Both the position numbers and the translations under genes were made by a program. Below are positions 4,563 to 57,395 of a DNA stretch of 64,000 nucleotides, one piece after another. Under the pieces are notes generated by a model. That model did no database searches and was not told the origin of the DNA. It was given only the letters and a program-made list of their open reading frames with translations. Source of the stretch: an uncultured Gammaproteobacteria bacterium (GTDB lineage Bacteria > Patescibacteriota > Patescibacteriia > 2-12-FULL-60-25); the NCBI GenBank assembly GCA_964415965.1, contig CAYQCK010000003.1, positions 3,426-67,425 on the forward strand. The letters are read 5' to 3'. The number at the start of each line of letters is the position of its first letter. Positions within the stretch are counted from its first letter, which is position 1.

Positions 4563-4649
4563 AAACGACGGGGAACGGAGGGATTGGAAAACAGGATATA
4601 TTTTATCCTGTTTTTGGCGTTGAGCCTAATTTTTTCCCGCAGCCGTCCA

Positions 4650-39315: not shown

Positions 39316-42300
39316 CTACTGCGTCACGCCCAGCTGGAGCGAGCCCTTGAACACGGTCCACGGCCGGAAGCTCTTGACCTTGTCCGCGGACTTGGGATAC
39401 GGGTCGCACATGTTCCTGGTCCGCGGGACGCTCGAGACGTACAGGTCCTGTTTGGAATCGCGGTTGAGCGTCTCGCCGGTGGCGTCGTAGCAGCCGCCGT
39501 ACGGCAGGAGGATGTTGTTCACGCCGGCGAAGCCCATCCCCAATTTGCCGTTCCCCAAGTCCTCGGCGCGGCATTCGCCCGAGCACCAGCCCCAGGCGTC
39601 CTTGATGATGACGCGCGGCGTGAAGCGGCAAGCGTTGTTGGTCTCGTCGAAACAGCCTCCCGGGGGCGCGATGCCGGCCACGCACTTGTCGCCCGGCGCG
39701 CAATCCGTCTTCTCGGTCGCCACGGTGCACTTCTGGGTGTTGTCGCGGTTGCAGTACATCTGGTCGCCGCAGGCCGCCGGTTTCTTGTCCTTGAGGCACT
39801 GGTAGACGTGGGTGTACTCGAAGTAGTTCTGCTCGCAGGCCCGGTCGCTGTTGCCGAAGGTCAGGCGGGGTTGGCACTTGTCGCCCACGTCCAGGCCGCC
39901 CTCGAAGCAATCCTTGTCCTCCACGCACTGGACCGACGGCTTGCTGGCGCAGTAGCTCGTGCTGACGCATTTTCCTCCGGCCGGCGGGCAGTCGTTGTTC
40001 GAGTTGCAGGTGAGTCCGGGCACGAACTCGCACTCCTTGGTCGACCCGCAGATCGGCTTCTTGTTCTTCATCCGGCTGTCATGGAACTCCTGGCTGGTGC
40101 CGTCGCCCCAATCGACCCAGATGTCCTTGATGCCCATCTGGTTGTCGGCCGCCCAGCCGTAGAACTGGATGGTGTTGACCGACTGTCCGCCGATGTACGC
40201 GACCTTGCCTTCGGCCATGCCGTCCAGGGCGAACGTCCCGACCTGCGATATCGGGCACTGTCCGGCCGACGGGCACTGGCGGGTCGTATCCGGCGCCGCC
40301 ATGGTCGGCGGCCGCGGGGCATAATAGGACATGTAGCCGTAGTTAGCCTCGTAAGGCGCCGGATCCTTCTTGTTCTTGTCCGCGATGTACGGCGGCATGT
40401 GCAGGCCGCTGCTCACGTCGGTCGGCGGCAGCCACATCTTCAGGTTGTACGACTCCTCCCCGGACTTCGGCGCCGGGACATTGCCCATGGTCCCCTGGTT
40501 GTTGTAGTCGCGCTGGGTGATGGCGGTCAGGCAGACGGCCTTGTTGAGGTCGTACCCGCACAGGTCGGCCCGGGGATAATAACCCGTGCCGTGGGTACAG
40601 GAGTTGTTGTCCTCGTCCGGGTTGGTCGCGGTCGGCGAACCCTGGTTGTTCTTGGTGGTGCAGTCGTAGTAGGGCGAGTTCGATTTCATCGGGTTGCCGT
40701 TGCCGTCAGACACCGGTTGGCAGAAATTGCTGTCATCACCGGTCACCCACAGCGGCTTGCAGGTGCTGGTCGAGGCGCAGAACATCCCGTCGAACACGCC
40801 GCCTTCGCACAAGCCGGGAGCCATGTCATCCGGACCGCTCCAGCGTATGGCCGTCGATGAGTGGTCGAAATACGGAACGTCGTGGGAGAAGCCGCCGCTG
40901 CAACCAGTTGTATCGCCTCCGAGCTTCGTGAATTCGCCGCACCTCGAAGAAGGCACCGGCAACCTCTCGCAATGCCCCGGAATCACCAACCTTACCCAAG
41001 GCGCTGACGCCGGGAAGGTGTAACCGGAATAGGGTTTGGACACTTGTCTGACGTTCACTACTCCCGGGAATCGTTTGATCGCATCTCCCGGATTTGAGTT
41101 AAGGTCGTACATGAAGTACCGGGTCCCATCCAAGGTATTTCCACCGATGTCTTTCCGCAACGTTTGGCCGTCAGTACCGAACCAACCGTCGGTTGAGTTT
41201 GACGTCCACCAGGGCACGGTTGCGGTATCGAATGACGCTTCAACCGATACGCCGACGCCCCGATACTGCTCCTTGCCGCAACTAGGCGAACCGGGACCGC
41301 ACGGATCATTGATGGGATAGTTGTAGTTCTGAGTGTCCAGATATGCGGGCCAGCTCATCTTCCATCCCGGGGTATGCGGCGTCTGGCCTTTGGACTTGGT
41401 CACCCAGGCATGGTTCTTGGGGAAAGGCATGGCCTTGTTCGGCTGGCCGCCGGCCTTGGCCGAATCCCAGAACCACCAGGTCTGCCACCAGAATGTACAA
41501 TCATAATCCTCATTGCACTGGGCGTTATCATACCCGTTGGTGCACCGATGGGTTGTCTTGTCGCAGACCGAATAACCAGCGCCCTTAGCCGATGGACCGA
41601 CTTCCAGCGGGCAGTCCAAGGACGGCATCCCTTCGCTCGGCTGGCGGCACCAGCCGTTGGTGCCGTCCGGGAACTTGACGCCGGCGTCGGCGCACTTGAA
41701 CGCGCCGGCCTTGGCCGCGGTCTTGCGCTGGACGAACTTCACGTTGCCTTGGGTGCAGCCCGGGATGCCGGCTTCGTTGCAGTCCGCCAGGGCGACCGCA
41801 TCGGTGCCGCTGTAGGCATAGCCGCTGACCGAACCGTCGTCGCCTTTGACTTCGGACCAGCCCGGCGCCAGGTCGCACGGCACGTACTGCGCCTTGAATT
41901 CCCCGTTCACCAGCCTGACCGGAGCCGCGTGGCAGACGTGATAGCCCTCGAGCGTCAGCGAGGCGCTGCACGGCAACCCGGCGTTCACGCCCGAAAGCGC
42001 GTTGCAGAACGCCGAATCGTCGTTGACCACGTCGTACAGCGTCGGGTTGCAGGTGCCGGTGTATCCGCAATATTTCTGGGACAGCGAGGCTTTGGTCGAG
42101 GCGACCAATTCATTCCAGTTTTTCTGCTGCGCGGGCGTCATCGGCTCGGCCGGCTTCGTGATCTTCGAACCGAACTTGGTGTACAGGACGGTCGCGTCGT
42201 CGACCAAGGTCTTGAGGTTGGGGCAGCGCGAACCGTAGTTCGGCCCGGCGATGCAGGCCCACGAGTTCTTGCCGACCGGCATGTCGTGGTACTGGTAGAC

Positions 42301-45300
42301 ATTGTAGATCTTGGCGAAGATGTCGTTGAGATAAGCCCAGTTGCCGAGCGGCATCATGGCCGTCTTGGCGTAGTTCGAACCGCTCGCCAGGAAGGTCGGA
42401 CGGACGCCGGACAGCTTGAACGTGGCTTTGCCGGACAGCGGACCCATCTGGTAGAGGGGATCCTTGCCGATGGCCTTGGTGTGCTTGGCCGCCCCGAACG
42501 GCGGGTTGAGCGTATCGTAGGTGAAACCCAAAGTCGGGATGGAGTACGCCCCGCCGTCCCAAATGCGGTCAGTGAAGGCGGCTGTCTCGTGGGTCGTCGG
42601 CGAGCTCGTGCGCGCCACCTGCTTGCAGATGTCGGCATGGTTCACGTCCAGGTACATGTACATGTAGCGCTCGGTCGTCGCTCCGGGATAGGATGCCGTC
42701 ACCCACCAGCCCACGAAGCGGAACGGGCCGCCCAACTGGGTACCCGACGGATCCATCTTGTTCTCCGGCACCCGGTTATCCTCCGGCGAGGCGTCCTCGA
42801 ACATCGCCCGGATGGCGAAGAACGGCTTCGACGACTCGGATTCGGCGAACATGACGTCGGCCGGGTCGAGTTTGCGCGGCCCGCCCACCGAATCGTCGAA
42901 CGTCCGGAATTTCTTCTGGCCATCGGCGCGCAAGCCCGTCTCCCAATACTTGTAATAGCACAAGGCGTCGCCTTCGCTGTCGTCGCCGTTCTCCGGATAC
43001 TTGCACGGCAGCCTGGCGAGCTTGGTGCCTTTTTCGTTCTTCAAGTAGCCGAAGTTCTCCGAGGTCAACGGCTTGAACTCGGCCATGACGCGGTTTATCA
43101 GGGTCGCGGCCGCGCTGTCCCAGCCCGCGCCGCTCTGATCGACCTTGAACTCGTCGACCCACCAGCCGGATTCGCCGCACGCCCAAGTGCCGCCGACGCC
43201 CGTCTTATACATCGGGTTGAAAACGAAGCTCGTGAAGTTCTGCTCCAGCGCCGCCTTCGCCGTCTTCGGGTCGGTCGAGGTGGCGATCTTGATGTCGTTG
43301 TACAGCCATTGGGCCCACGCGACATCATTGAATTCGATGAAATACTCAGAATAATTGCGGCCCAAACCGCGGCCCGTGGTTATCCAGCGGCCGGCGCGGA
43401 TATCGTTGGCCACGTCGCCGCCGGCATAGGCCATGCGGACGCCGGCGCAATTCGATCCGCTCTCGCCGCCATTGGCCCGCACCCCATCCAAGGTGGCTCC
43501 CAAACCGCAATGAGCCTCGTACCAATCGTCGTCACTGTTCCATGAATCATAACCCCACGGCATGGGATGGTCGTTCACGACGTCCGTGTCGATGACGTAG
43601 CACTCGTGGTAATCGAAGTGGGTGATCTTGCCCGGAGGCGTCTTGACCAACATGGACTTCAGGTCGCCCTCCGGCGGAGTTTTGCATTTGATACCGTCCT
43701 CGCTCGTACGAATGGGATACATCTTCCATTCGCAGATATTGTGGTTGGCCTGCGTCTTCATGGTCCGCGGTTCCCGCGATTTGGACAGGCAGTAGTATTC
43801 GCCGGAGCTGGCGGGCGGCAGATAGCTGGCCGTCGGTTCGTAGTGGTAGCGGTCCTGCTGGCCGGCCAAGACCGGGGCCGGGTTCCAGACCAAGCACGGG
43901 TTCCGGTCCAACGCGCCGCCCAATTTGCGGCTGTAGTCGCGCTGCAGGCACTGGCCGATGACGCCGCGGACAAAGGTGTCCTTGTCCAAAGGCGAACAGG
44001 AACCGGAACGGCACCCGGCCGGCACGATATCCGAACCGGAGATCTTCGACGGGGCGACCGCGGCATCCTGGCCAGCGATGGCCTGCGCCAAGGCGGCGTT
44101 CTGCGAAGCCTGGTCTGCCTGGCCCTGCTTCTTGGCCTGCTCGGCCGCCGCATCCGGATCGCAAGCCTTGCCTGCATCCAATCCGCCGACACAGATGCCT
44201 AGCGGCGCCGTGCCAGCGAAGGCCGAGTAGTACTTCTTCTTGGCTCCATACGACACCTTGCGGTACGAGCAATCGCAATCCTCTCCGTATTCGCAGAATT
44301 CGACCGAATCGTAGCCGTCCAGGAACGTCTTCGGCAACGGCGGATCGACCGTCAAATCCCAATCCTTGATGAATTTGTTGGCGAACGGGGAAGTCGCTTC
44401 GGGATGCGCCCGGCACTCGACGGGCGGATAATGGCGGTTCAGGTTGTTGTCCGTGGCCAGCGACGCGCTCTGTTCGAAGGTCGTCGAGATCTTTTGGGCA
44501 TTGCCGGGCAGTCCCAGGAACTGGCCCAACGCCTCGTTCAGGACGGTCGTGTAGGGCTTCTCGATCGGCAGATAGCAATTCGGCGTCGGTTCGTCCTTGA
44601 TCTTGTAGCCGATCATCCCGGTCTGCGCATGCTTGCACAGGTTGAGGTACGGATAGGCCGTATCCTTGAAATCCACGGCGAACCAGGGTTCGGTGCACGC
44701 AGCTTTGCCGTCGATGCAATCCTGGTTGGTGGCCATCGGCACGGCCGCCACCAGCCGGAACTCGTTGTACAGGGCGTCGCGCTGTTTGCCCGGCCGCATG
44801 AGTTCATACGCCACCCGGCGCATCTGCAGGTCGGACACCTGGAAATGGTTGGGGATGGTGTAGCCCGTGTAGTCGATCGAACCGAAACCCGTGATCCGCT
44901 TGATGTACGAACCGATGTCCGTGAACCGGCCCTGGGCCAGCTGGCTGGTCGGGTCTGACTTGCGGTCCACGTAATGGCCGCAGAAATTCTTGCTGGCCGC
45001 GCCGCCCGCCTGGTCACAGGCCGAGAGGTTGGTGCACAGGTCGATGTACTTCTGCTGGGACGGGTCATAGACCGTCTCGGCCGACGAGCAGCCGAGCCAG
45101 GTCTGGCAATCGCGGTCGAGCTTCACCTTGAGGATGAGGTTGGAGTCGTTGGGACGCGTGCATTTGCCTTGGTATTCCCAGGTGCCGCCCCCGACAGGAC
45201 GCTCGAAAGAGCAATCGTTATCGGTTTTACAGGAGACGTTCTGGTATGCCAGCAGGCCCGGGACGGTTGCGCTCTGGATTTCGATCGGGGCGAATATCCC

Positions 45301-48300
45301 TCCGCCCTGTTGTGTTTTCGGTCGGGCCTTTTGTTCGACGCAGCGCCCGGCATTGACGCAATGTTCGTTGGTCGGGTCGTTCTCGCAGTTGATGGTGCCC
45401 ACCGCCACATCGCCGTCGGCATGACTCTTGGCGTAGGTCGCCGTCGAATTGAACGTCAGCGAGCTGTCGTTCATGTCGCGGAACAGCACGCAGCCCGAGA
45501 GCGGATCCACCTTGCCCTTGCACGATGCCTTGTCCAAGGCCTCGTTGGCGATGAAGAAATACGGTTTGCCTTGCGGATGGGCCTGGTCGCTCTTGTCGCT
45601 CGGGTCGCGGTATTCGGTGCACTCCGACTGCTCGCTCGGGCACAGGTTGACCCAGCCGCGGTAATTCGGGGCGGCCGTGAACTCGGTCAGGAAACTGCTG
45701 CCGCCGGCCTGCTTTTCCGGATAGCACGGTACCGGCGGTTCGGCGCCTTTGACGAACCAGCCCGAATACTCACCTTCCGGATAAGCCGGATTGGCGGACG
45801 CCTTAACCTTCACCTTATCCTTCCATTCGCAGACATGGTCGCGCGGGTCGCGGAAATACGAGGTGACCGGTCCGCTCACGAATTTGTCGCACAACAGCTC
45901 GCTCGGCCGGCACAGCATGTCCGGCTCTCCCCCGCCGTCCACGTATTTCTTGATGTCGTCCTTGAGGTAGACCGTCTCGTAGGTCGAACTCGGGACGCCG
46001 AAGGCGTCGAACGTCGGTTTGCCGAAGGCGCGGCAAGACGCGGCGGTCGCGGCGCAGCGCGTGCTCGGTTCGTCGATGGCGTAGAGGTAGCGGTCGGCCG
46101 GCCGGGTGACGGTCAAGGTGCCGGCGTACAGTTTGTCCCACTGCTTGGTCAGGGTGTTCTGGTCGTAACCCGCCAGCTTGAAGTCGTCGGCATAGGCGCT
46201 GTCCGAATTCCGCGTATCGATGAACGCCGCGCACCCGACCGACTCGTAGCGGCACAACCGGCTGAACTGGCGCAGGTCCACCTTCTTGCCGTTCCGGTCG
46301 CGGTATTCGCGGCAGCCCAACATGGCCTGCGGCAGCGGCACGCCCTCCGGGGTCTGGTCGCATTCGGCCGGGACGGTCCAGGAATCCTTGTTGACGTACA
46401 CCACATCCTGCAGGCGCTGGACGGTTATCTCGTCGAAATAGCTCGGCGACGGCAGGTTGCCGAACGTCAGGGTCTGGTTCGGGCTCCCCATGGCGCGGAA
46501 CGGCCCGAGCTCATAGCGCTTCCAATCGGTGCCGGCCTTGAAACCGCCGGCCGGATTGCCGCCCAAGCTGACAGTCACGTTCTTGCCCGTATTGTCCAGT
46601 GATTTGTACCAGAAGCTGACCGAATACAGGGTATTGGTCGTGGCCGGGAACGTGACATTGAAAGTCGCCGCCGCCACCGCCGACTGGTATTTGAGCGAGT
46701 AGTCGCCGACCATCAGCGCTTCGGGCGAGAAACCGAACGTCGTGCCTTGGCCCGTGACCGAGAACGCGTTTGAGCTGGTGGCGTTGGCGAACGTCTCCTT
46801 CAGGACGACGGTCGTATTGCGGCCGGTCGTGCCCAGGTAGCCGCGGCAGCCGGCATTGACCGCGTCGCACTGGGCGCTTTCGGCCAAGAGCACGCTGTAG
46901 AGGCAGTCGCCGGTCTCGGAGCGGTAGCTGCCGCCGGTCTTGGTGCAGTCGTCGGTGTTGGAATTGTTCTTGCGGTAATCGCGGCAGTCGGCCGACGACA
47001 CCACGGTCTTAGAATAATACGAGTAGAACGCCTTGCCCTGTTCGTCGTAGAACTGGCGGCAGTCCGCATCGGCTTTCGCACCCCAATTGTCGGCGTTGCA
47101 GTCGGCGGAGTTCTTGAGGATGCCGTCAGGTCCGGCTTTCTCGATGTTCAGCGGCGCGTAATGCGGCGTCGGATCGTTGGGGTCGACCGGGGTCGGGTTC
47201 TTGATGAGGCTCCAGGTCTTGAGTTGGTAGCCGGTCGTGTCCGAACCTTCCCAGGTGAAGTACGTCTGGGAATTAGCGTTCGGTTTTTGGCAGGCGCGGG
47301 CATAGGTCAGGTAAGCCACTTCCTCGCCGCCCAAAGCCGCCGCCTCGACGTTCGTCATCCCCTCGCATCCGGCTTGGGCCGCGTTGCAGGCCTGCGCCTG
47401 CTTCGGGATGAAGACGGCCTTGGTGTCGTCCTTCGGGTCATCGAGCGGATCCGCGGACGGCACCGGCGCACCCGTGTTGACCAGGTCGAAGGCCGACGGC
47501 AGTTTCTGGTATTCGGCGTAACCGACGCATGAGTTCGGGCAATAATCGGTCTGCGACAGGATGGCCGGCACTTCGGTCGTGTCGCCCGCCCCGACTTCCG
47601 TATATCCTTGGCAGCCGGCATCGGCCTGGAGGCACATCTTGGCGTAGCCGTCGCACTCCTTGCGGTCGAGCTTGCTGTCGCCGGTGCAATTGAATTCCTC
47701 CGGCGGAAGCTTGATGTGCAACGACGGCAATCCCGGGTTGTTGCCGTCCAGGAAATCGGTCGGGGCGAAACCTTCTTCGAGCTGGACCGCGTCGATGGCC
47801 GCGTTCGTGCCGGCCACCGCAATCTTCGCCGTTTGCGCGTCCTTGTTCGTCAGGAACTCGCAGGTGAAGCGCGTCCAATCGGCGGTCAACCCTCCGGCGC
47901 CGACGTTGGCGCGGGTCTGGGCCGCCCCTCCGGGCGCCCCGACGATCGTCGAATTGCAGTTCGGGCTGCGGTAATAGTTCGTGCCCGCCGCGACATCGGT
48001 CCCCGCCGCATTCAACAAAACCGCGGTCACTGAAGCTATCCCGGCCGGACCGTTGCCGCGGGCATAGAAGGACAGCACGTAATTCCTCAAAGGCTTGACC
48101 TTGACCCTCTGGACCAGCGGCACGACCACCGCGCCGAACGCCTGGCTGCGGCTGCCTTCGAAAGATACATCGCCGTCCTGCGTATCCAGCGCTTTGACTA
48201 CAGCCGGAGCTGACGGGTTCGCGCTATCGGACCAGCCGTCATAATAACCGTCCTGGTTCTTCAGCGTGTCCTCGAACGAACCGTTACGCACCAGGTTCAG

Positions 48301-50454
48301 GGCATTCTGGCTCGGCTGGACGCGCAGTACCTTGGTGCAGCCGTCGCCCGACGCGTCGCATTTCTCGACCTTGGAGTCGAAGTAGACGCGCGGCATCGTG
48401 CCGAGGGTCACGGATTTCTTGTCGGTCGTGGCAGTATTGAGCCATTTCAGGGTCGAGGTCACGGACATGTCGTATTGCGCGGAGTAGAACATGCAGCCGA
48501 CATTGTCCTGGTTGCAGGCGCCGTAATCCACGGAATTGCGCACGTACGACACCTCCGCGCCCTTCTGGTAACCGTCGCTCCGCGATTTGTAGGTCCGGCA
48601 GCTGACGAATTTCTCGTCGCAAGCGTCGGCGCCGAAACGCCAGACCGTCTTCTCGGCCAAGCAGTACCCGTAACCGCCGGTGCAGACGCCCTTGTCGTCG
48701 CGCTTGAGGCACGAGACCGGATCCGCGCATTCCTGCAGGCGGGCGCTCGTGCCTTGGACCATCAAGGTATCGCTGTAGCCTTTCAGCTGGCACTTGAACG
48801 GCGGCGCCGTCAGCACCCAGGCCGGGTCGATCAGGTGGCACCACGGATGCTCGGCATCGAGCTTATTGTCCTTGTTGCAGTCGTTGTAGCCGCGGATGAC
48901 CGTCCCGAGGGTCACGTACTTGCCGCTGTTCTTGATGTTGAACGGGGAATTCGCCGCCAACTCCCAGCCGATGGGCAGGATGCGGGCGAACCGCAACTTG
49001 GCCAGGTTGGAGGCGCAATAGGCGCGCTGATAGCAACCCGGATCCTGGTCGTTCTTGACGTCCGTCGCCGGGATGAGCTCCCAGTCCTTGTGCAGGAATG
49101 CGGCCGGCGCGGCGCCGCCCAGGCCGGCCGCGCGGGACACGGTGTAGGCGCCTTCCGTGGTCGCGTTCTTCACGGCCGAGACCATGCCGTCGTCCATGGT
49201 GCAATGCCAATAACCGCGGTTGTCCGGACAGATCGCCATCTCGGACACGATATCCAGCATGTCCATGGTCACCATGTTCGGCGAGATGATGTCGGTGAAG
49301 GCCTTGGCCCGCGCTTTCTTCGGTTCGGCCGCCTTTTCGGCGTACGGGTTCGTCAGATCCATCTGGTAGTTGGTGTCGTCGCTCGAATCCTCGCCCATCA
49401 GGAAAGCCAAAAGCTTCTGGAGCGCGCCGGTCGCCAAGGTCGAGAGGAAAGCCATGCCGGCCACGACAGGCAGCTGCTCGATGGTGGCCCACATGGCCTG
49501 CAGGGCCATGTTGTTGACCTGGGCGATGGTCATGTCCTTCACCAAGCCGGCTTGGTTGTTCTGCGCGATGGTCTCTTGGATGACGACGGCCGGCGTCTTG
49601 ATTTCAGGGTTGAGAGGGCCACGTTTGACCGTCTTCAGGCCCTTGGTCTCTTGGCGGTCGAGTTCGGCCGCTTTCTGTTCTTCGGACTTGCCGACCAGGT
49701 ACATGCTGTTGACGCGCAAGTTGAAGTCGAAATCGTTGCCGCCGACATCCACGCTCCTGACCATGGCCACGGCGATATCCCGGGGCTTGAGCTGGCGGTA
49801 CATGTTCTCGAAATTCTCCTTGACTCCCTGGAACGTACAATCCGGCCCCGGGACCTTGGCGACCGAGCCGATGCCGAGCGCCAGCTTCATGCCGAAGTTC
49901 GGCTGGGTACACAACCCCAGGCCCCACTGTTTGTCCAACTGGTCGATGAACCGGTTGGTGAATTCCATGCCCAGGTTCTTGACCATGCCCCCGAATCCCT
50001 GGCGCCAAAAAGCCGGCTGGCCGTGCATGCCCTCAAGCACCCACTGGGCCGTCTGCTGGCCGATGGTGATGGCGAAATTGAACAGTACGTCGGACAATGC
50101 CCTGACCACGACCATCTGGAGATAGCCTCCGACTTTCGCGACCTGGCCCTTAAGGACCTCGAAATACTGGCAATCTGGAGCCATTTCTTGCCCAAACACC
50201 CAACTGGATATGCCTCCATACATCCCAGGCATCGATCTAGCCTGCCAATCATACGAACTGCAGACCGGAGTCTCCATCGCGACCTGGGCGATCGCACTGT
50301 AGTCCTCGTCCGCGGCCTTGGCTTCCGGGACCGCTGCGGCCAGCGATGCCGTGACCAGCGAAAGCATGGCCAGCATCATCGAGCCTTTCGCCAACAGGCG
50401 GTAGCATTTTTTCAGGACAGCGGGCATAGCGTTTTTAGGGGTATATTTCGGCAC
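39316..50454 (-). CDS. giant (3712 aa) cysteine-rich secreted or surface protein
   Basis: Single uninterrupted 11.1-kb ORF. N-terminal signal/anchor (SMMLAMLSLVTASLAAAVPEAKA). Well over 100 Cys spread throughout and Gly/Asp/Asn/Thr-rich. No internal stops and the composition is not Arg-rich. Confidence 0.85.
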   Translation of the reverse strand: MPKYTPKNAMPAVLKKCYRLLAKGSMMLAMLSLVTASLAAAVPEAKAADEDYSAIAQVAMETPVCSSYDWQARSMPGMYGGISSWVFGQEMAPDCQYFEVLKGQVAKVGGYLQMVVVRALSDVLFNFAITIGQQTAQWVLEGMHGQPAFWRQGFGGMVKNLGMEFTNRFIDQLDKQWGLGLCTQPNFGMKLALGIGSVAKVPGPDCTFQGVKENFENMYRQLKPRDIAVAMVRSVDVGGNDFDFNLRVNSMYLVGKSEEQKAAELDRQETKGLKTVKRGPLNPEIKTPAVVIQETIAQNNQAGLVKDMTIAQVNNMALQAMWATIEQLPVVAGMAFLSTLATGALQKLLAFLMGEDSSDDTNYQMDLTNPYAEKAAEPKKARAKAFTDIISPNMVTMDMLDIVSEMAICPDNRGYWHCTMDDGMVSAVKNATTEGAYTVSRAAGLGGAAPAAFLHKDWELIPATDVKNDQDPGCYQRAYCASNLAKLRFARILPIGWELAANSPFNIKNSGKYVTLGTVIRGYNDCNKDNKLDAEHPWCHLIDPAWVLTAPPFKCQLKGYSDTLMVQGTSARLQECADPVSCLKRDDKGVCTGGYGYCLAEKTVWRFGADACDEKFVSCRTYKSRSDGYQKGAEVSYVRNSVDYGACNQDNVGCMFYSAQYDMSVTSTLKWLNTATTDKKSVTLGTMPRVYFDSKVEKCDASGDGCTKVLRVQPSQNALNLVRNGSFEDTLKNQDGYYDGWSDSANPSAPAVVKALDTQDGDVSFEGSRSQAFGAVVVPLVQRVKVKPLRNYVLSFYARGNGPAGIASVTAVLLNAAGTDVAAGTNYYRSPNCNSTIVGAPGGAAQTRANVGAGGLTADWTRFTCEFLTNKDAQTAKIAVAGTNAAIDAVQLEEGFAPTDFLDGNNPGLPSLHIKLPPEEFNCTGDSKLDRKECDGYAKMCLQADAGCQGYTEVGAGDTTEVPAILSQTDYCPNSCVGYAEYQKLPSAFDLVNTGAPVPSADPLDDPKDDTKAVFIPKQAQACNAAQAGCEGMTNVEAAALGGEEVAYLTYARACQKPNANSQTYFTWEGSDTTGYQLKTWSLIKNPTPVDPNDPTPHYAPLNIEKAGPDGILKNSADCNADNWGAKADADCRQFYDEQGKAFYSYYSKTVVSSADCRDYRKNNSNTDDCTKTGGSYRSETGDCLYSVLLAESAQCDAVNAGCRGYLGTTGRNTTVVLKETFANATSSNAFSVTGQGTTFGFSPEALMVGDYSLKYQSAVAAATFNVTFPATTNTLYSVSFWYKSLDNTGKNVTVSLGGNPAGGFKAGTDWKRYELGPFRAMGSPNQTLTFGNLPSPSYFDEITVQRLQDVVYVNKDSWTVPAECDQTPEGVPLPQAMLGCREYRDRNGKKVDLRQFSRLCRYESVGCAAFIDTRNSDSAYADDFKLAGYDQNTLTKQWDKLYAGTLTVTRPADRYLYAIDEPSTRCAATAASCRAFGKPTFDAFGVPSSTYETVYLKDDIKKYVDGGGEPDMLCRPSELLCDKFVSGPVTSYFRDPRDHVCEWKDKVKVKASANPAYPEGEYSGWFVKGAEPPVPCYPEKQAGGSSFLTEFTAAPNYRGWVNLCPSEQSECTEYRDPSDKSDQAHPQGKPYFFIANEALDKASCKGKVDPLSGCVLFRDMNDSSLTFNSTATYAKSHADGDVAVGTINCENDPTNEHCVNAGRCVEQKARPKTQQGGGIFAPIEIQSATVPGLLAYQNVSCKTDNDCSFERPVGGGTWEYQGKCTRPNDSNLILKVKLDRDCQTWLGCSSAETVYDPSQQKYIDLCTNLSACDQAGGAASKNFCGHYVDRKSDPTSQLAQGRFTDIGSYIKRITGFGSIDYTGYTIPNHFQVSDLQMRRVAYELMRPGKQRDALYNEFRLVAAVPMATNQDCIDGKAACTEPWFAVDFKDTAYPYLNLCKHAQTGMIGYKIKDEPTPNCYLPIEKPYTTVLNEALGQFLGLPGNAQKISTTFEQSASLATDNNLNRHYPPVECRAHPEATSPFANKFIKDWDLTVDPPLPKTFLDGYDSVEFCEYGEDCDCSYRKVSYGAKKKYYSAFAGTAPLGICVGGLDAGKACDPDAAAEQAKKQGQADQASQNAALAQAIAGQDAAVAPSKISGSDIVPAGCRSGSCSPLDKDTFVRGVIGQCLQRDYSRKLGGALDRNPCLVWNPAPVLAGQQDRYHYEPTASYLPPASSGEYYCLSKSREPRTMKTQANHNICEWKMYPIRTSEDGIKCKTPPEGDLKSMLVKTPPGKITHFDYHECYVIDTDVVNDHPMPWGYDSWNSDDDWYEAHCGLGATLDGVRANGGESGSNCAGVRMAYAGGDVANDIRAGRWITTGRGLGRNYSEYFIEFNDVAWAQWLYNDIKIATSTDPKTAKAALEQNFTSFVFNPMYKTGVGGTWACGESGWWVDEFKVDQSGAGWDSAAATLINRVMAEFKPLTSENFGYLKNEKGTKLARLPCKYPENGDDSEGDALCYYKYWETGLRADGQKKFRTFDDSVGGPRKLDPADVMFAESESSKPFFAIRAMFEDASPEDNRVPENKMDPSGTQLGGPFRFVGWWVTASYPGATTERYMYMYLDVNHADICKQVARTSSPTTHETAAFTDRIWDGGAYSIPTLGFTYDTLNPPFGAAKHTKAIGKDPLYQMGPLSGKATFKLSGVRPTFLASGSNYAKTAMMPLGNWAYLNDIFAKIYNVYQYHDMPVGKNSWACIAGPNYGSRCPNLKTLVDDATVLYTKFGSKITKPAEPMTPAQQKNWNELVASTKASLSQKYCGYTGTCNPTLYDVVNDDSAFCNALSGVNAGLPCSASLTLEGYHVCHAAPVRLVNGEFKAQYVPCDLAPGWSEVKGDDGSVSGYAYSGTDAVALADCNEAGIPGCTQGNVKFVQRKTAAKAGAFKCADAGVKFPDGTNGWCRQPSEGMPSLDCPLEVGPSAKGAGYSVCDKTTHRCTNGYDNAQCNEDYDCTFWWQTWWFWDSAKAGGQPNKAMPFPKNHAWVTKSKGQTPHTPGWKMSWPAYLDTQNYNYPINDPCGPGSPSCGKEQYRGVGVSVEASFDTATVPWWTSNSTDGWFGTDGQTLRKDIGGNTLDGTRYFMYDLNSNPGDAIKRFPGVVNVRQVSKPYSGYTFPASAPWVRLVIPGHCERLPVPSSRCGEFTKLGGDTTGCSGGFSHDVPYFDHSSTAIRWSGPDDMAPGLCEGGVFDGMFCASTSTCKPLWVTGDDSNFCQPVSDGNGNPMKSNSPYYDCTTKNNQGSPTATNPDEDNNSCTHGTGYYPRADLCGYDLNKAVCLTAITQRDYNNQGTMGNVPAPKSGEESYNLKMWLPPTDVSSGLHMPPYIADKNKKDPAPYEANYGYMSYYAPRPPTMAAPDTTRQCPSAGQCPISQVGTFALDGMAEGKVAYIGGQSVNTIQFYGWAADNQMGIKDIWVDWGDGTSQEFHDSRMKNKKPICGSTKECEFVPGLTCNSNNDCPPAGGKCVSTSYCASKPSVQCVEDKDCFEGGLDVGDKCQPRLTFGNSDRACEQNYFEYTHVYQCLKDKKPAACGDQMYCNRDNTQKCTVATEKTDCAPGDKCVAGIAPPGGCFDETNNACRFTPRVIIKDAWGWCSGECRAEDLGNGKLGMGFAGVNNILLPYGGCYDATGETLNRDSKQDLYVSSVPRTRNMCDPYPKSADKVKSFRPWTVFKGSLQLGVTQ

Positions 50455-51259
50455 CCGTCGAAGTCGGCGGCGTGCCCTTCCAATCAGGCTTCAAACCAGG
50501 CTGATCGACTTGGATCGGCGAACTCGTGGAGGTGGTCGTCTGGATTTTCGCGGTCGTGGTCGCAGTCGGCGACTGGGTCGACGGCGGCGTGCTTCCGCCC
50601 GCGCCCAATCCCCTCTGCTGGTCGACGTTCTGGACGGCGGCATCGTAAAGCTTCAGCAACTCCTCGTCCGAGATGCTGTCGATGTCGGTGTCGGGAAGCT
50701 TCTCTTTGAGCAGACGGCGAATGTTAGCCGGGTCGCGCGACAGCATGGCTTGGGCCTGGGCGACGGTATTGGCCGTGCCGCTGCTCATCAGGCCGCCTAA
50801 TCCTCCCTGGAGCGGGCTAGTCTCGCCGGGCAATCCGTCCGAACCGCTTGAGGTCGAGTACACGCCGCTCACATCCAAAGCGCCCGAGCTGTTCGGCGCG
50901 TTCAGGCAACCCAAACCGCGGCGCGTCACCACCCGGACATTGTCCGGGATGCCGTCGCCGCACGTGTCACGGAGGTTCGCGTTCGTATGGTAGACGTTCT
51001 GCTCGTCCCAATTGGACAGACCGTCGCCATCCGTGTCCAGCCGCTTCTGCTGGGCGATCTGTTCCTCGGTCGTCAGGCCGATGAGCTTCTTGGCGTCCGT
51101 GAGCGTGGTCTTCTCGACCAGGAACGGCGCGCGGATCAGGTTATTGATCCGGAACAGCGACAGCCCCAAGGCTGCTCCGGCCATAACGCTAAGCAAGACC
51201 AAGGCCATTTTCTGTTCCTTAGCCAACGCATACCAACGCTCTACAATGTCACGCCACAT
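50435..51259 (-). CDS. membrane-anchored protein with a thrombospondin-type-3/dockerin-like Ca-binding motif; overlaps the giant gene start by 20 nt
   Basis: N-terminal TM (MALVLLSVMAGAALGLSLF). DTDGDGLSNWDE matches the DxDxDGxxDxxE Ca-binding loop. Ser/Thr/Gly-rich C-terminus. Confidence 0.6.
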   Translation of the reverse strand: MWRDIVERWYALAKEQKMALVLLSVMAGAALGLSLFRINNLIRAPFLVEKTTLTDAKKLIGLTTEEQIAQQKRLDTDGDGLSNWDEQNVYHTNANLRDTCGDGIPDNVRVVTRRGLGCLNAPNSSGALDVSGVYSTSSGSDGLPGETSPLQGGLGGLMSSGTANTVAQAQAMLSRDPANIRRLLKEKLPDTDIDSISDEELLKLYDAAVQNVDQQRGLGAGGSTPPSTQSPTATTTAKIQTTTSTSSPIQVDQPGLKPDWKGTPPTSTGAEIYP

Positions 51260-52295: not shown

Positions 52296-54137
52296 CTACT
52301 CCGTTTTCTTGTCTCCTTCGGTCGTCGCCGACAATTTCTCGACGCCGATCAGGCACACGGCCTGCCACGGCCGGTAATGGCTGCGGAAGACCTGCTTGCG
52401 GTCCTCGCCGCCCGGCATCTTCACGGTATAGACGAACTCGGCATCCAGCCCGGTGTGGGCGATTTCGGTGCACTTCTTCTTGCCCGGGGCCAAATCCAGC
52501 GTCTCGACCAGCTTGGTCGGCGGCGGCGCGACCGAATTCCAGGTCCGCGGATAACTGTAATCGCCTTGCCGGCCGTCCGATGTGCCCCAGAACTCGAAGA
52601 ACAGCTCATCACCCTTCTGGAAAGCGTGGATCATGATGGGATTGCCGGTATCGTTCCTGAATTTCAGGTCGGGATGCGGGCCGTAGATGGTGGCGTCGGT
52701 GCCGGGCGGATCGTAATAGCGGACGCGGTACGAATGGTTCTGGCGCTCGGTGATCGGCAGGCCGGATTTCATGGCCCCGCGGAACAGCGTCGTCCCGATC
52801 TGGCAGAGTCCCCCGCCGTACTCCGGTTTGGTCTCGTTGCCCTTGATGACCATCTCCGGGAACCAGCCGTGTTTGCCGTCGATTTCGCCCATGGTATCGA
52901 CCGTCGAGAACTCGGCGCCCGCTTCGATGATGGTGCCGTTAAGGATCTCGATGGCGCGCGCGATGTTCTTGCGGCGATTGGTCGGCGAACCGGAGAAATT
53001 CGAGTACCCCGTGCCGAGCAGTTCCTTGATGCCCATCTTCTGCGGATCCTCTCCGGCCAAAGTCGCCGCGATCTTCCTGACCTGCAACGGGAAAGTCGAG
53101 GTGGCGGGCCATTCGGCCAAGACCGGCTTCAGGGTCGCGTCGGCGTCGATGGCAGAGCCCTCGGTGCCGGCGGTGAAGGACGCGATCTTCCCGTCCTTGA
53201 ATTCCAGGCTGCCCTTCTTGCCCTCTTTCTCGACGCCCGGCGCCGCCGTCTTGATGCCTTCCGCGAACTTCTTGGCGTCGATGGTCAAAGCAAGCTCGCC
53301 GGCCTTGCCCGCGACCCCGATCCAACCGGCCAAAGTCGAGGTCGGGATGGCGTAATTGTTCTTTTCGTAGGTAAATACCAGCTGCGGCCGGTTCAGGAAA
53401 TCGAAGACTTGCGGCATCAGCGGTTCCAGGTCGGCCGCCGAAATCGTCGGCTTCACCGTCCTGACGCTCAAGGCGATCGGCTTGAAATCCAATTTTTTCG
53501 CTTGACGCTCCAATTCATCCATCGCGTTGTCCGTGATGAGCACCTGGCCGCCTCGTTCCGGCTCGATCGAGACCGACGGCCGCGTGCCCGACGGCGCGCT
53601 GATGGCAAGAGCCGCGTCCTTCGCCTCCTTCAGGTCGGATTTGAGGTTCGCCTGCAAGGCATCCACCACAGCCGCCCTGTCGACCGTGACCCGCGCCAAG
53701 ATGTCCATCGGGTAGACGCGCAAACGCATCTGCTCCTGGACGTCCTTGCGCCAACCGTCTTCGCGGCCCAAGCCGTAGGCGACGTCCAACGCCTGGTCGA
53801 CGTCGTAGCGCACCAAATCGCGCGATGCGTCCGGATCGGTCGAAGCGGAAGTGACGTCGAGGGTCACGTCGCGTCCTTGGTAGCTGAAACGCAATCCTTT
53901 GCCCAAGGCGTCGTCGATGGCCTTCTGCACGGTTTGGCGCGCCTCGCTCTTGGTCAATCCGTCGAGCCTGACGCCCAAAATCCTGACGCCCGGGAACATC
54001 CGGTTCTCGTACAGGCGCCCGTAGGCCATCAGCGAACCGGCGGCCATCAAGCAGCCCACGGCCAAGATGCCGACCATGACGTTCGTCCAGACGAGGATTA
54101 TCCTGACCGTCTGGAGCTTCGGATTCTTGCTGGCCAT
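52296..54137 (-). CDS. VanW-family protein with N-terminal TM anchor
   Basis: 613 aa. N-terminal TM (IILVWTNVMVGILAVGCLMAAG). C-terminal VanW domain (EYGGGLCQIGTTLFRGAMKSGLPITERQNHSYRVRYYDPPGTDATI). Confidence 0.8.
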   Translation of the reverse strand: MASKNPKLQTVRIILVWTNVMVGILAVGCLMAAGSLMAYGRLYENRMFPGVRILGVRLDGLTKSEARQTVQKAIDDALGKGLRFSYQGRDVTLDVTSASTDPDASRDLVRYDVDQALDVAYGLGREDGWRKDVQEQMRLRVYPMDILARVTVDRAAVVDALQANLKSDLKEAKDAALAISAPSGTRPSVSIEPERGGQVLITDNAMDELERQAKKLDFKPIALSVRTVKPTISAADLEPLMPQVFDFLNRPQLVFTYEKNNYAIPTSTLAGWIGVAGKAGELALTIDAKKFAEGIKTAAPGVEKEGKKGSLEFKDGKIASFTAGTEGSAIDADATLKPVLAEWPATSTFPLQVRKIAATLAGEDPQKMGIKELLGTGYSNFSGSPTNRRKNIARAIEILNGTIIEAGAEFSTVDTMGEIDGKHGWFPEMVIKGNETKPEYGGGLCQIGTTLFRGAMKSGLPITERQNHSYRVRYYDPPGTDATIYGPHPDLKFRNDTGNPIMIHAFQKGDELFFEFWGTSDGRQGDYSYPRTWNSVAPPPTKLVETLDLAPGKKKCTEIAHTGLDAEFVYTVKMPGGEDRKQVFRSHYRPWQAVCLIGVEKLSATTEGDKKTE

Positions 54138-54147
54138 ATGGTCTATT

Positions 54148-54372
54148 CTACCCTTTCAGGAGCTCATTGAGGAGATGTCGGGCCAGGCGCTGGCGTCCGG
54201 CATCCTCTCCGCCCAAAACCGCGGCGAGCAAGGCGATATCCTGGCCGACCTTGGCCTCCCCCTCGATGGCCGACACGGGCAACGCCAAAATCCGCCCGTT
54301 CTCCAAGCGCAGCTCAGCCTCTTCACCCCTGATTTCGGATATCTTGCCTTTCAACATATTGATGGCGCACAT
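54148..54372 (-). CDS. small hypothetical protein (74 aa) at the head of the VanW operon
   Basis: The ORF begins about 50 nt after the copy-B RNA element. Its stop lies 8 nt before the VanW start. Confidence 0.4.
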   Translation of the reverse strand: MCAINMLKGKISEIRGEEAELRLENGRILALPVSAIEGEAKVGQDIALLAAVLGGEDAGRQRLARHLLNELLKG

Positions 54373-54466
54373 TAGCCCGGAAATTAATTAATGTAAAGCC
54401 TCAAACGGGACGATGATTTCGGGATGACATGGCCCAATCACTAAATTCGGTCTGAATGAGCCCCAC

Positions 54467-54593
54467 TTCGCAAGTGACAAGGGGGACCGGGGGTCCATGC
54501 TAAGCGTGGCCCGCAGGATAGCCGACGCTGGCGATACCGAGAGCGCATCATGGACCCCCGGAACTTTTGCTACTTTTGGTTACAAAAGTAGAT
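54467..54593 (-). ncRNA. candidate structured cis-regulatory RNA element, copy B, in the leader of the small-ORF/VanW operon
   Basis: See copy A. Here the long-range helix is GGGGGUCCAUG/CAUGGACCCCC and the hairpin loop is UAAC (UGAC in copy A). Confidence 0.4.
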
Positions 54594-54790
54594 AGGATGG
54601 CTTTCGCCCCAAATAACAAAACAAGGCCTAAGGTAATCCGCATCCAAGAAACCTATTTATAGGGGAGTGCAAGTCCGAAGACCTGCGGCACCCTACGAAA
54701 GAGGTTCCATGCTTGTCGTGGACGCGGATTGCCCCAGACCTCGTGGCCTCGGCTATCCGTCAAGCTGTCAAAGCGCTGGCGTAATGAGTG

Positions 54791-54819
54791 GTTATAACAT
54801 GCCCCGGAAATCCTGTCAA
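54791..54819 (-). promoter_or_regulatory. sigma70-like promoter (TTGACA-N17-TATAAC) driving a ~400-nt leader that contains the copy-B RNA element
   Basis: The reverse strand reads TTGACAggatttccggggcatgtTATAAC. A perfect -35 and a near-consensus -10. Confidence 0.5.
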
Positions 54820-54952
54820 TAGGGCCAACCGCCCCGGGACGAAAAAACGGTCTTCCGTGAAAGGCCGTTCAAAGGTTCTGTTAAGATTGAATCAAATTAG
54901 TAAAACCGTGTCAAGTATCGTATATTTCATCTAAAATTAGCGGTTTTTTCAT

Positions 54953-54980
54953 AAAAAATCCGCGTAAATGCGCGGATTTC
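54953..54980 (-). terminator. rho-independent terminator downstream of smc
   Basis: The reverse strand reads AAATCCGCGcatttaCGCGGATTTTTTAT. Confidence 0.6.
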
Positions 54981-55011
54981 CTGGTTTTTGTTAAGTTTGG
55001 ACAGCCGTTAT

Positions 55012-57273
55012 CTAGGTCTTCAGCTGACGCTCGGCTGGCTGGTCCAGCTTGACCGACAGCAACTGGGACACGCCGTCGTCACCCATAGTCACGCCGTAGA
55101 GCACGTTCGCCTTGTTCATGGTCGCCCGGTTGTGGGTCACGACGATGAACTGCGTCCGATCCGAGAGCGTGTCGATGATCTCGGCGAACTTCCGCGAATT
55201 GGCCTCGTCGAGCGCCGCGTCTACCTCGTCCAGGACCACGAACGGCGACGGGTTGATGGCCATGATGGCGCAGATGAGCGCAATGGAGGTCAAGGCGCGT
55301 TCGCCGCCAGACAGCAGGGCGATGGCTTTGAGCCGCTTGCCGGGCGGCGTGGCGTGGATCTCAATGCCCGCCGGCTGCGCTTCCCCCTCCCCTTCATCCC
55401 CGATGCCGCCCTCCACCTCTTCCGCCCCAGCATCCTGCTTCAAGCTTCCGGCTTCCGGGTTATCGCCTGCCGAATCCGATTCTATCTTCACCAGTTCGGC
55501 CTCGCCGCCGCCGAACAGCTTCTTGAAGAACACGCCGAACTCCTGGTTCAGCTGGCGGAACGCCACGTCGCCGCGTTCCTTGATGGTCCGGTCGAGCTCG
55601 GCGATGACCGTCTCGAGCGAGGCGATGGCCTGCCGCAAATCGGTCGACTGGGTCGTCAGGTGCTCGAAGCGCTCCTTAGTCGTTTCGTATTCCTTGACCG
55701 TCTCGGGGTCGATGCCGCCAATCCACTCGAGCTGGGAACGCAGCCGCTGCATCCGACTGCGCAAGGCCTCGGCTTCGGCCTCGGCTTTGGCGGCCGTATC
55801 GGCCATGGCTTCAAGCTCGCCCTCGAGCGTCCCGGCCTGCTGGCGCAACTCGGCCAAGAAGCCCTCGCGCCGCGTCTCGAGCCGGGCCAGGTCGACGGCT
55901 GAGGCCGACACCCTCTGCTCGGCCTGCTGGGCTTCGTGGCGCTTGGCCGTAAGCCTGCGCTGCAGGTCGAACAACTGGCTGCGGCTCTCGTCCTCCTTGC
56001 GGTTCAAGGCCTGGAGTTTGGCTTCCATTTCCCCGATCTTGGCCGCGACTTCCGACATCTCCTTGGCCAGCTGGCCGAATTCCTTCTCGAGCTCCGGATC
56101 CGCCTGTTCCTTCACCGGCTCGGGGGCGGGCTGTTGGAGTTGGGAAACCAGCTTCTGGTTTTCGGCCTTGAGCTCCTGAGCCAATTTCTTGGCCTTGTCC
56201 CAATCCGGCTTGGCCGACTCGAGTTCCTTGATGAGCTCGTCCTGCTTCGACGACAACCCCTCGATGCGCTCGATGATCTTGGTGAGCGGCAAAGGCGACC
56301 ACGGCTGCTTGGACTGGACTTTGGCCACCTCGCGCCGCGACTCTAGCCTGATCTGCCGTTCGCGCAGCTTGCTCCGTTCTTCCTTGAGCCCATCGATGGC
56401 CGCGCGCATCTCGCGCAATTCGCTCGAGACCGGCGTCGCCTTCTCCAGCTTGCCCAATTCCTGTTCGACCGCCTCGGCTTCGCGCTCTTTCGCGGCATGG
56501 TCCTGCTTGGCCTTTTCGGCCGCGGCCTGCGCCGCTTTGAGCTGGCTCCGCAACCCGGCCCAGACGCCGCCGAAATACTCGCGTTCCACCTGGTGCAGCT
56601 CCTGCTCCAAAGCCTCGCGCTGGCGCAGGCGCTTGACCTGGCGCTCGAGCGAAGTGAGCCGCGGCTCGATCTCGCGCAGCATAAGCTCGGCCTGCTTAAG
56701 GTTGTCCCGGGCGTTATCCACCTTGTTGACCGCCGAGTGGCGCTTGAGCTGGAACGGCTTGAGGCCCGACGCCTCGTCGAAGAACTCGCGGCGCTCCCCC
56801 GGGCTGGCCGACAGGACCGCGTCAACCATGCCCTGTCCGATGACGCTGTAGGTCCGCTGGCCGACGCCGCATTGCGCCAACAGCATCGTCACGTCCATAA
56901 GCTTGGCCGCCTGCTTGTTGATTTCGTATTCGGATTGCCCGTCGCGGTACAGCCGGCGCGTGATGACGATCTCGGGCAGATCGATCTCCGGGTTGCGCTC
57001 GTTCGTGATGGTCATGCTGGCTTCGGCGAAGCCGGCGCGCGGTTTCTTGGCCGAACCCGAGAAGATGACGTCCTCCGATTTTTTGCTGCGCAGCAGCTTC
57101 ATGCTCTGCTCGCCCATCACCCAGCGCAAGGCGTCGGCGACGTTGGACTTGCCGGACCCGTTCGGCCCCACGATGCCGGTCACGCCGCGCTTGTCGGCGC
57201 CCGGCACGAATTCCAGCACGGTCTTTTGGGCGAAGGTCTTGAACCCTTGGAGTTCCAGGCGGGAGAGATACAT
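55012..57273 (-). CDS. smc: SMC-family chromosome segregation ATPase, short form lacking a recognisable hinge domain
   Basis: SMC N-head (LELQGFKTF...IVGPNGSGKSNVADALRWVMGEQSMKLLRSKKSEDVIF) and C-head (LSGGERALTSIALICAI...VVLDEVDAALDE), with only ~410 aa of coiled coil between them and no Gly-rich hinge. About 753 aa from MYLSRLEL. Confidence 0.8.
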   Translation of the reverse strand: MYLSRLELQGFKTFAQKTVLEFVPGADKRGVTGIVGPNGSGKSNVADALRWVMGEQSMKLLRSKKSEDVIFSGSAKKPRAGFAEASMTITNERNPEIDLPEIVITRRLYRDGQSEYEINKQAAKLMDVTMLLAQCGVGQRTYSVIGQGMVDAVLSASPGERREFFDEASGLKPFQLKRHSAVNKVDNARDNLKQAELMLREIEPRLTSLERQVKRLRQREALEQELHQVEREYFGGVWAGLRSQLKAAQAAAEKAKQDHAAKEREAEAVEQELGKLEKATPVSSELREMRAAIDGLKEERSKLRERQIRLESRREVAKVQSKQPWSPLPLTKIIERIEGLSSKQDELIKELESAKPDWDKAKKLAQELKAENQKLVSQLQQPAPEPVKEQADPELEKEFGQLAKEMSEVAAKIGEMEAKLQALNRKEDESRSQLFDLQRRLTAKRHEAQQAEQRVSASAVDLARLETRREGFLAELRQQAGTLEGELEAMADTAAKAEAEAEALRSRMQRLRSQLEWIGGIDPETVKEYETTKERFEHLTTQSTDLRQAIASLETVIAELDRTIKERGDVAFRQLNQEFGVFFKKLFGGGEAELVKIESDSAGDNPEAGSLKQDAGAEEVEGGIGDEGEGEAQPAGIEIHATPPGKRLKAIALLSGGERALTSIALICAIMAINPSPFVVLDEVDAALDEANSRKFAEIIDTLSDRTQFIVVTHNRATMNKANVLYGVTMGDDGVSQLLSVKLDQPAERQLKT

Positions 57274-57395
57274 ATAGCCCACATAGATTACTTAAAAAAC
57301 CGCTCTTCGGGAAGGGGAAAAGCCGCACCCGGCGGCATTGACAAGGCTGCCGGAATATGGTTTGCTGGGACATCGTCCCTTGAAAGGAGTCTTGC

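Follow-up and report, generated by a model that had tools for sequence, protein, structure and literature searches.

The window, that is, the whole stretch of 64,000 nt that was analysed, carries on its minus strand an SMC gene (55012-57282), a gap of 640 nt, a small ORF (54148-54372) and a VanW/PG_binding_4 gene (52296-54137), followed 3' of the latter by genes for an HSP20 protein, a TSP3-repeat protein and a 3712-aa protein. The following features were located between the SMC gene and the start of the small ORF.

54979-54953, minus strand: smc terminator AAAUCCGCGCAUUUACGCGGAUUUUUU (context, outside the RNA gene)
54914-54842, minus strand: tiny upstream transcription unit, with -35 box TTGACA at 54914-54909 and -10-like box TTCAAT at 54891-54886
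54819-54791, minus strand: predicted promoter of a small RNA (sRNA), with -35 box TTGACA at 54819-54814, a 17-nt spacer, the extended -10 TG at 54799-54798 and -10 box TATAAC at 54796-54791
54785-54612, minus strand: predicted sRNA transcript of ~170 nt, its 5' A placed at ~54785 from the -10 box and its 3' end from the U-tract
54785-54745, minus strand: variable 5' tail, conserved neither in length nor in sequence
54744-54621, minus strand: conserved rod-like hairpin P1-P5, as defined by RNAalifold and covariation
54744-54732 with 54633-54621, minus strand: helix P1
54732-54719 with 54646-54633, minus strand: helix P2 (AAUCCGCGUCCA/UGGAUGCGGAUU)
54718-54709, minus strand: asymmetric 10-nt bulge CGACAAGCAU, facing a single U
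54708-54702 with 54654-54648, minus strand: helix P3
54696-54691 with 54664-54659, minus strand: helix P4
54686-54680 with 54675-54669, minus strand: helix P5
54679-54676, minus strand: UUCG tetraloop on P5
54621-54611, minus strand: U-tract UUUUGUUAUUU directly 3' of P1, a probable intrinsic termination site
54610-54398, minus strand: non-conserved spacer, unalignable in relatives and unmatched by the covariance model of the sRNA (model R1)
54591-54570, minus strand: UAAC hairpin in the spacer
54561-54487, minus strand: copy B hairpin in the spacer
54484-54461, minus strand: GCGA hairpin in the spacer
54397-54369, minus strand: predicted promoter of the small-ORF/VanW operon, with -35 box TTTACA at 54397-54392, a 17-nt spacer and -10 box TAATGT at 54374-54369
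54357-54355, minus strand: probable true start codon (ATG) of the small ORF, with GCGCCAUCAAU between the -10 box and the ATG

A sequence-only reading of this DNA had proposed a minus-strand promoter TTGACA-N17-TATAAC followed by a structured 5' leader of ~400 nt belonging to the VanW operon. The promoter was found at the place listed, with an extended -10 TG in addition. The hairpin described for the leader, GCAGGUC-UUCG-GACUUGC, was present as well (54686-54669, seven pairs including one G-U), and corresponds to P5 and its loop. The longer-range pairing AAUCCGC/GCGGAUU, in which this hairpin was said to be nested, also exists, with its coordinates shifted by 1 to 2 nt from those proposed (54730-54724 with 54641-54635).

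The intergenic regions of relatives were first reached via VanW homologues. The ~125 nt corresponding to window positions 54744-54621 proved almost invariant in them, and all sequence downstream was unalignable. By blastn, the sRNA core was 95% identical to that of L007 and L008, where the VanW protein is 62% identical, and 83 to 88% identical in L009, L012, L014 and L016, where VanW identity ranges from 49 to 64%. In L038, with a VanW identity of 47%, the covariance model scored 123.5 bits. A metagenome scan with an invariant 21-mer yielded 19 further loci. Altogether, 27 distinct homologues, all from assemblies of Uhrbacteria (Patescibacteria), retained the fold; 19 of these 27 sequences were obtained with the exact 21-mer, so that the apparent invariance of that stretch is inflated. 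The 10-nt bulge was identical in all 27 sequences, and it was still unchanged in the ten lineages found by synteny alone, for which the bulge was not used as a search key. The sRNA was present in all ten synteny-only lineages whose contig spans the region. Three synteny-derived lineages added after the metagenome scan (VanW 47 to 53% identical) each carried it.

As for its distribution, the sRNA has so far been seen in Uhrbacteria only. The sources of the closest VanW relatives name them Candidatus Uhrbacteria or Patescibacteria, and at least one lineage with a different gene order around the sRNA (L026, see below) is also labelled Uhrbacteria. A scan of GTDB genomes with the VanW protein gave a single distant match, in Oscillospiraceae.

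Structure prediction with RNAalifold on 24 aligned sequences rendered one unbranched rod of 43 pairs, with compensatory changes in 16 of them and standard pairs in 97.3% of the cells. The covariation score was 0.271, compared with 0.135 ± 0.009 in shuffled alignments, none of the 500 shuffles reaching the observed value. Controls in which the pairing partner was slid by one to three columns gave scores of 0.035 to 0.068, four to eight times lower. The comparison of paired positions in related genomes, which the sequence-only reading had named as a check, thus came out in favor of the fold. Covariation was free in P1 and in portions of P3 and P4. For its part, P2 was almost invariant in sequence (12 base pairs fixed), and most of P5 was nearly fixed too; a compensatory change from C-G to U-A inside P2 in L038 nevertheless indicates that P2 is truly a helix. 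Of the 24 aligned sequences, 21 had a UUCG loop on P5, whereas two had UCCG there and one had UUAC.

The RNA is read from the minus strand, as had been proposed. This strand is fixed by three G-U pairs that are invariant or nearly so. The G-U of the P5 hairpin turns into an A-C mismatch on the plus strand, and the 174-nt unit 54785-54612 folded better than its shuffles on the minus strand (z = -5.85) than on the plus strand (z = -3.55). The same was observed with the 418-nt stretch at ~54373-54790 (z = -4.33 versus -2.74), in keeping with the folding check suggested for the ~400-nt region. The covariance model scored 145.7 bits on the minus strand of the window compared with 48.3 on the other strand, and about 124 to 148 bits in sense versus 40 to 56 in antisense across the sequences. 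It detected one sRNA copy per locus.

The hexamers of the sRNA promoter, which can be written as TTGACA-N17-TGnTATAAC, were kept in relatives and the sequence of the spacer varied. Such conservation of the -35 and extended -10 elements around a varying spacer is the signature of a real promoter. The distance from the -10 box to P1 ranged from 10 to 60 nt among relatives. At the other end, P1 and the UUUUGUU that follows it in the window provide the stem and the U-run of a probable intrinsic (Rho-independent) terminator. A simple terminator scanner left this site unflagged because the loop of the stem exceeds 100 nt. A U-run directly 3' of P1 was present in all lineages in which the sRNA follows SMC and in L018, while most of the lineages in which it follows VanW had instead a separate GC hairpin with a U-run 15 to 45 nt downstream of P1. 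That the region is a structured rather than a coding RNA, as the sequence-only reading held, agreed with the lack of any ORF of at least 60 aa in 54373-54790. Inspection by eye found no conserved ORF within the sRNA either; its sole AUG-initiated frame in the window has 5 aa, and, also by eye, an internal AUG in relatives such as L019 was followed by different codons. The unit therefore has what is generally asked of a stand-alone sRNA gene: its own promoter and terminator, a covarying fold, the lack of a conserved ORF, and a location that is tied to no single neighbouring gene.

Taking these data together, we consider it probable that positions 54785 to 54612 of the minus strand are an independent structured sRNA gene of ~170 nt, most likely acting via a protein partner. 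Its own near-consensus sigma-70 promoter with an extended -10 would drive the synthesis of the ~170-nt RNA, starting near 54785 and ending at the U-tract after P1, and from the sequence of this promoter, transcription would best be read as strong. The body of the molecule would be the 125-nt rod-like hairpin, made of five helices with internal loops between them, and it would act in trans.

The sequence downstream of the sRNA behaved quite differently. The ~400-nt stretch does fold, as claimed, but its downstream half (54610-54373), copy B included, is unconserved, and the conserved unit stops with its basal stem and U-tract ~170 nt after the promoter, which does not fit a leader extending to the VanW operon. 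Within copy B, CCACGCUUAGCAUGGACCC matches the 19-mer CCACGACAAGCAUGGAACC of the invariant core at 79% identity, and copy B may be a decayed partial duplication of it. As a second copy of the sRNA it was discarded, given that it gave no match to the covariance model, was absent from relatives and is confined to the lineage of the window.

The small ORF and VanW have a putative promoter of their own. The arrangement TTTACA-N17-TAAKNT-N11-ATG was kept in the window and in L004/5, L006, L008, L009, L011, L029 and L034, that is, in the window plus seven distinct relatives (nine further loci). The annotated ATG of the small ORF, at 54372, falls within the conserved -10 box, and the homologues of the small ORF are called at 69 aa. 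With this promoter placed 11 nt before the ATG, the small ORF would probably start at the ATG at 54357 and have 69 aa rather than 74, and the operon would be nearly leaderless, with a 5' untranslated region of a few nucleotides.

Four arrangements of the sRNA relative to VanW and SMC were found among the lineages. The commonest is that of the window, in which SMC, sRNA, small ORF and VanW follow each other on the same strand (also in L004, L007, L009, L012, L016, L020, L027, L033, L037 and L038). In L017, L018, L023, L024, L026 and L028 the sRNA lies downstream of VanW and faces trxB, the order being HSP20, small ORF, VanW and sRNA in one direction and trxB, trx and infB in the opposite one, with SMC absent nearby; L025 also has the sRNA after VanW, and L022 has an extra ORF between the two. 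In L014, L015 and L031 the sRNA follows SMC and is convergent with VanW. Finally, in L032, which lies on the same contig as L011, SMC and the sRNA are separated from the small ORF and VanW by 4.6 kb with three NAD-salvage genes. In L036, which otherwise has the gene order of the window, a NAGPA-domain gene (4538-5335) is inserted between SMC and both small RNA units. The insertions in L036 and L032 indicate that at rearrangement breakpoints the two RNAs together behave as a module of their own. Wherever a locus was long enough for the neighbouring genes to be seen, the sRNA nonetheless lay within ~5 kb of VanW, so that it may have a functional tie to the VanW gene cluster. No RNA-binding gene consistently adjoined it across the loci.

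These arrangements bear directly on the possibility that the element acts in cis on the small-ORF/VanW operon, as its structured 5' leader or attenuator, with the basal stem and U-tract forming a regulated terminator. The commonest gene order, with the sRNA preceding the operon in the same orientation, is what such a leader would show, and the small ORF of L016 and that of L037 start ~14 and ~24 nt after the U-tract, which leaves no room for a separate promoter. With so tiny a gap, read-through from the sRNA into the operon is possible there and may feed it. A cis-leader has to lie upstream of its gene on the same strand, however, and the sRNA was 3' of VanW in L017, L018, L022 to L026 and L028, facing trxB in several of these lineages, convergent with VanW in three others and 4.6 kb away in another. 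Nor should a promoter lie between a leader and its ORF, yet 11 nt before its start codon the operon shows a conserved promoter of its own, L016 and L037, with almost no spacer, being the exceptions. Furthermore, the 240 nt between sRNA and ORF are unconserved, and no riboswitch or leader family was matched in Rfam searches of the window region and five homologous loci. The leader model is already contradicted by gene order, and we regard it as extremely improbable. The case is an annotation trap, in which an apparent long operon leader is made up of two small genes plus an unconserved spacer.

Known RNA families were searched with Rfam 15, at the gathering threshold on the whole window and in E-value mode on positions 54100-55100 and five homologous loci. 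No family was found at the position of the sRNA in the window region or in the five loci even at E values up to 10; the E-value scans gave terminator-driven noise only (Leu and His leaders, rimP and similar). ARAGORN detected no tmRNA or tRNA in the sRNA region, blastn against Escherichia coli genomes and phages gave no match to the sRNA, and no exact match to it was present in IMG/VR. A piece of rRNA and a phage or plasmid-like element were discarded on the lack of blastn matches in E. coli and phages and of exact matches in IMG/VR. In the literature on noncoding RNAs of candidate-phyla-radiation (CPR) bacteria, Patescibacteria or Uhrbacteria, nothing relevant to such an RNA was found. The genomes of CPR bacteria are very small, few regulators are known from these organisms, and to our knowledge almost no noncoding RNAs have been described in them beyond the universal ones.

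A strongly diverged housekeeping RNA, either the small SRP (4.5S) RNA or 6S RNA, missed by the Rfam models in this lineage, would account for a strong promoter of constitutive type, for conservation like that of rRNA, and for a rod-like hairpin similar in size to SRP RNA. The sRNA resembles small SRP RNA (RF00169) in being a single long irregular hairpin of ~100 to 125 nt, with apical and middle parts very highly conserved and an alternation of symmetric and strongly asymmetric internal loops, and in being probably a protein-binding RNA of housekeeping type with a strong promoter. Two further points favor SRP: the sRNA lies just downstream of smc, the position of ftsY in Bacillus subtilis, and its apical 5' strand CAGGUC equals C46-C51 of E. 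coli 4.5S RNA. In the latter, a symmetric loop with conserved AGCA on the 3' strand and, beside it, a 4-nt/1-nt asymmetric loop are the binding sites of the Ffh M domain. The sRNA, in contrast, is capped by UUCG rather than by the GNRA tetraloop of helix 8, and lacks the AGCA/GG symmetric loop. Its 3' strand has CUYGCW in place of the conserved AGCA, the sequence after the cap being GACUYGCW, mostly in Watson-Crick or G-U pairs; its first 4x4 loop reads UGYC/WCUC, and its loops are spaced otherwise.

Similarly, the sRNA shares with 6S RNA (ssrS, RF00013) a rod-like stand-alone form, a strong promoter, a 5' extension of variable length, and long closing and terminal helices broken by a large loop, but its core has 125 nt versus ~180 nt, and its sequence conservation is far above that typical of 6S. 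Moreover, in its large loop 10 nt of the 5' strand face 1 nt of the 3' strand. It is thus no two-sided central bubble, and, unlike 6S, the sRNA offers no mimic of an open promoter. Both identities were rejected on the structural features tested together with the absent Rfam match, and we hold a diverged SRP or 6S RNA to be highly improbable.

The sRNA also resembles orphan structured RNAs found by comparative genomics, such as raiA and the OLE motif, which are likewise defined by conservation and covariation, are lineage-restricted, have their own promoter and terminator, and were without an assigned function when discovered. It differs from them in sequence and fold, being a simple unbranched rod in which no multi-stem junctions or pseudoknots were detected. 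The independent sRNA appears to represent an RNA family that has not been described before but is of a familiar kind, that of structured sRNAs restricted to a lineage, and is not a new kind of system.

Regarding its mode of action, entire helices, as well as the bulge, keep their sequence beyond what pairing demands, which makes partnership with a protein the most likely mode. The sRNA would be the RNA partner of a protein, either in a small ribonucleoprotein or as a protein-sequestering RNA, with P2, the bulge and P3 as the recognition module. The bulge could alternatively be the seed of a base-pairing sRNA, directed to mRNAs carrying 5'-AUGCUUGUCG-3', with the rod as a mere stable scaffold. 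That the bulge is identical in every sequence and predicted to be unpaired suits this idea. So does the complement itself, which holds a start codon and could therefore matter for the near-leaderless mRNAs of the organism; the small-ORF operon appears to be one of these, and pairing close to the start codon would be an effective control of it. Nevertheless, no complementary site was found at any gene start within the window. The only other match in the window carries one mismatch. The two window matches observed compare with 4.06 expected by chance, and 94 of 100 shuffles gave as many or more. In 386 kb of related loci there were no exact 10-mers (~0.7 expected) and no ATGCTTGTC 9-mers (~2.9 expected). 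Seed pairing also leaves the sequence-fixed P2, with its 12 base pairs, and P5 unexplained, and we judge it unlikely.

In the preferred reading, that of an sRNA with a protein partner, a core far better conserved than the adjacent proteins, a covarying fold and strong promoter signals point to an important function in a not-yet-cultured lineage, most plausibly as a ribonucleoprotein. Y RNA and vault RNA offer a parallel, as rods of ~100 to 130 nt in which a conserved helix and bulge could be a protein site, although the Y_RNA and Vault families share no sequence or model match with the sRNA. No TROVE/Ro protein was found among the ~35 window ORFs scanned with Pfam. A further step, in which the sRNA would be the RNA component of an essential ribonucleoprotein specific to the Uhrbacteria lineage, strikes us as quite unlikely. 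Such a particle might be a functional replacement of SRP or 6S RNA in reduced genomes, or might contain the homologue of the major vault protein (MVP) encoded 21 kb away, and the tiny RNA of ~40 nt could be its second component. No linkage of the MVP-like gene to the sRNA was seen. The covariance model and the invariant 10-nt bulge can be used for pull-downs, metatranscriptome mapping and genome annotation.

The MVP-like gene is an 861-aa ORF at 30708-33293 on the minus strand, with a weak Vault_3 repeat ahead of a Pfam MVP_shoulder match (E = 2.6e-11). A phmmer search of the PDB matched it to eukaryotic MVP over residues ~420 to 766 (E = 2e-6). A 2019 preprint described bacterial MVP homologues in Cyanobacteria, Deltaproteobacteria and Bacteroidetes, with CPR unmentioned.

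The tiny unit upstream of the sRNA had been read as a possible attenuator-like hairpin with a U6 tract, at 54848-54878, between the smc terminator and the sRNA promoter. The hairpin exists, and together with its U6 it spans 54868-54842. It is no attenuator; it closes a separate tiny promoter-plus-terminator unit, with a predicted RNA of ~40 nt ending in this hairpin. Complementarity between the 5' part of the tiny RNA and the long RNA did not exceed that of shuffled controls, the duplex energies being no better than those of shuffled seeds (z between -1.4 and +0.8 across 17 lineages), and the tiny RNA was discarded as a pairing partner of the long one. Of 25 lineages, 23 had the unit, in each case immediately upstream of the long RNA and in the same orientation, with a U-run of five or six. 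Its TTGACA was nearly invariant (TTGACG in two lineages), and the distance from it to the U-run was near-fixed among 20 curated lineages.

Other observations concern the surroundings of the RNA genes. The spacer between sRNA and small ORF is 200 nt longer in L004 (~2400-2750) and is filled with a directly repeated unit of ~25 nt (CGTCCTGAGCGTAGCGAAGRAYC), which is absent from the window. A 16S rRNA gene lies at 17735-19240 on the minus strand, and the window has two tRNA genes; with no 23S or 5S rRNA genes in the 64 kb, the rRNA operon is unlinked. In the region 39316-51259 of the minus strand, the 3712-aa protein, rich in cysteine, is encoded 3' of the TSP3-repeat protein, which has 274 aa. 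Across Uhrbacteria both kinds of protein keep their synteny with HSP20 and VanW, the homologues of the giant protein measuring 3400 to 4250 aa and showing in some cases a faint CBM_4_9 match.
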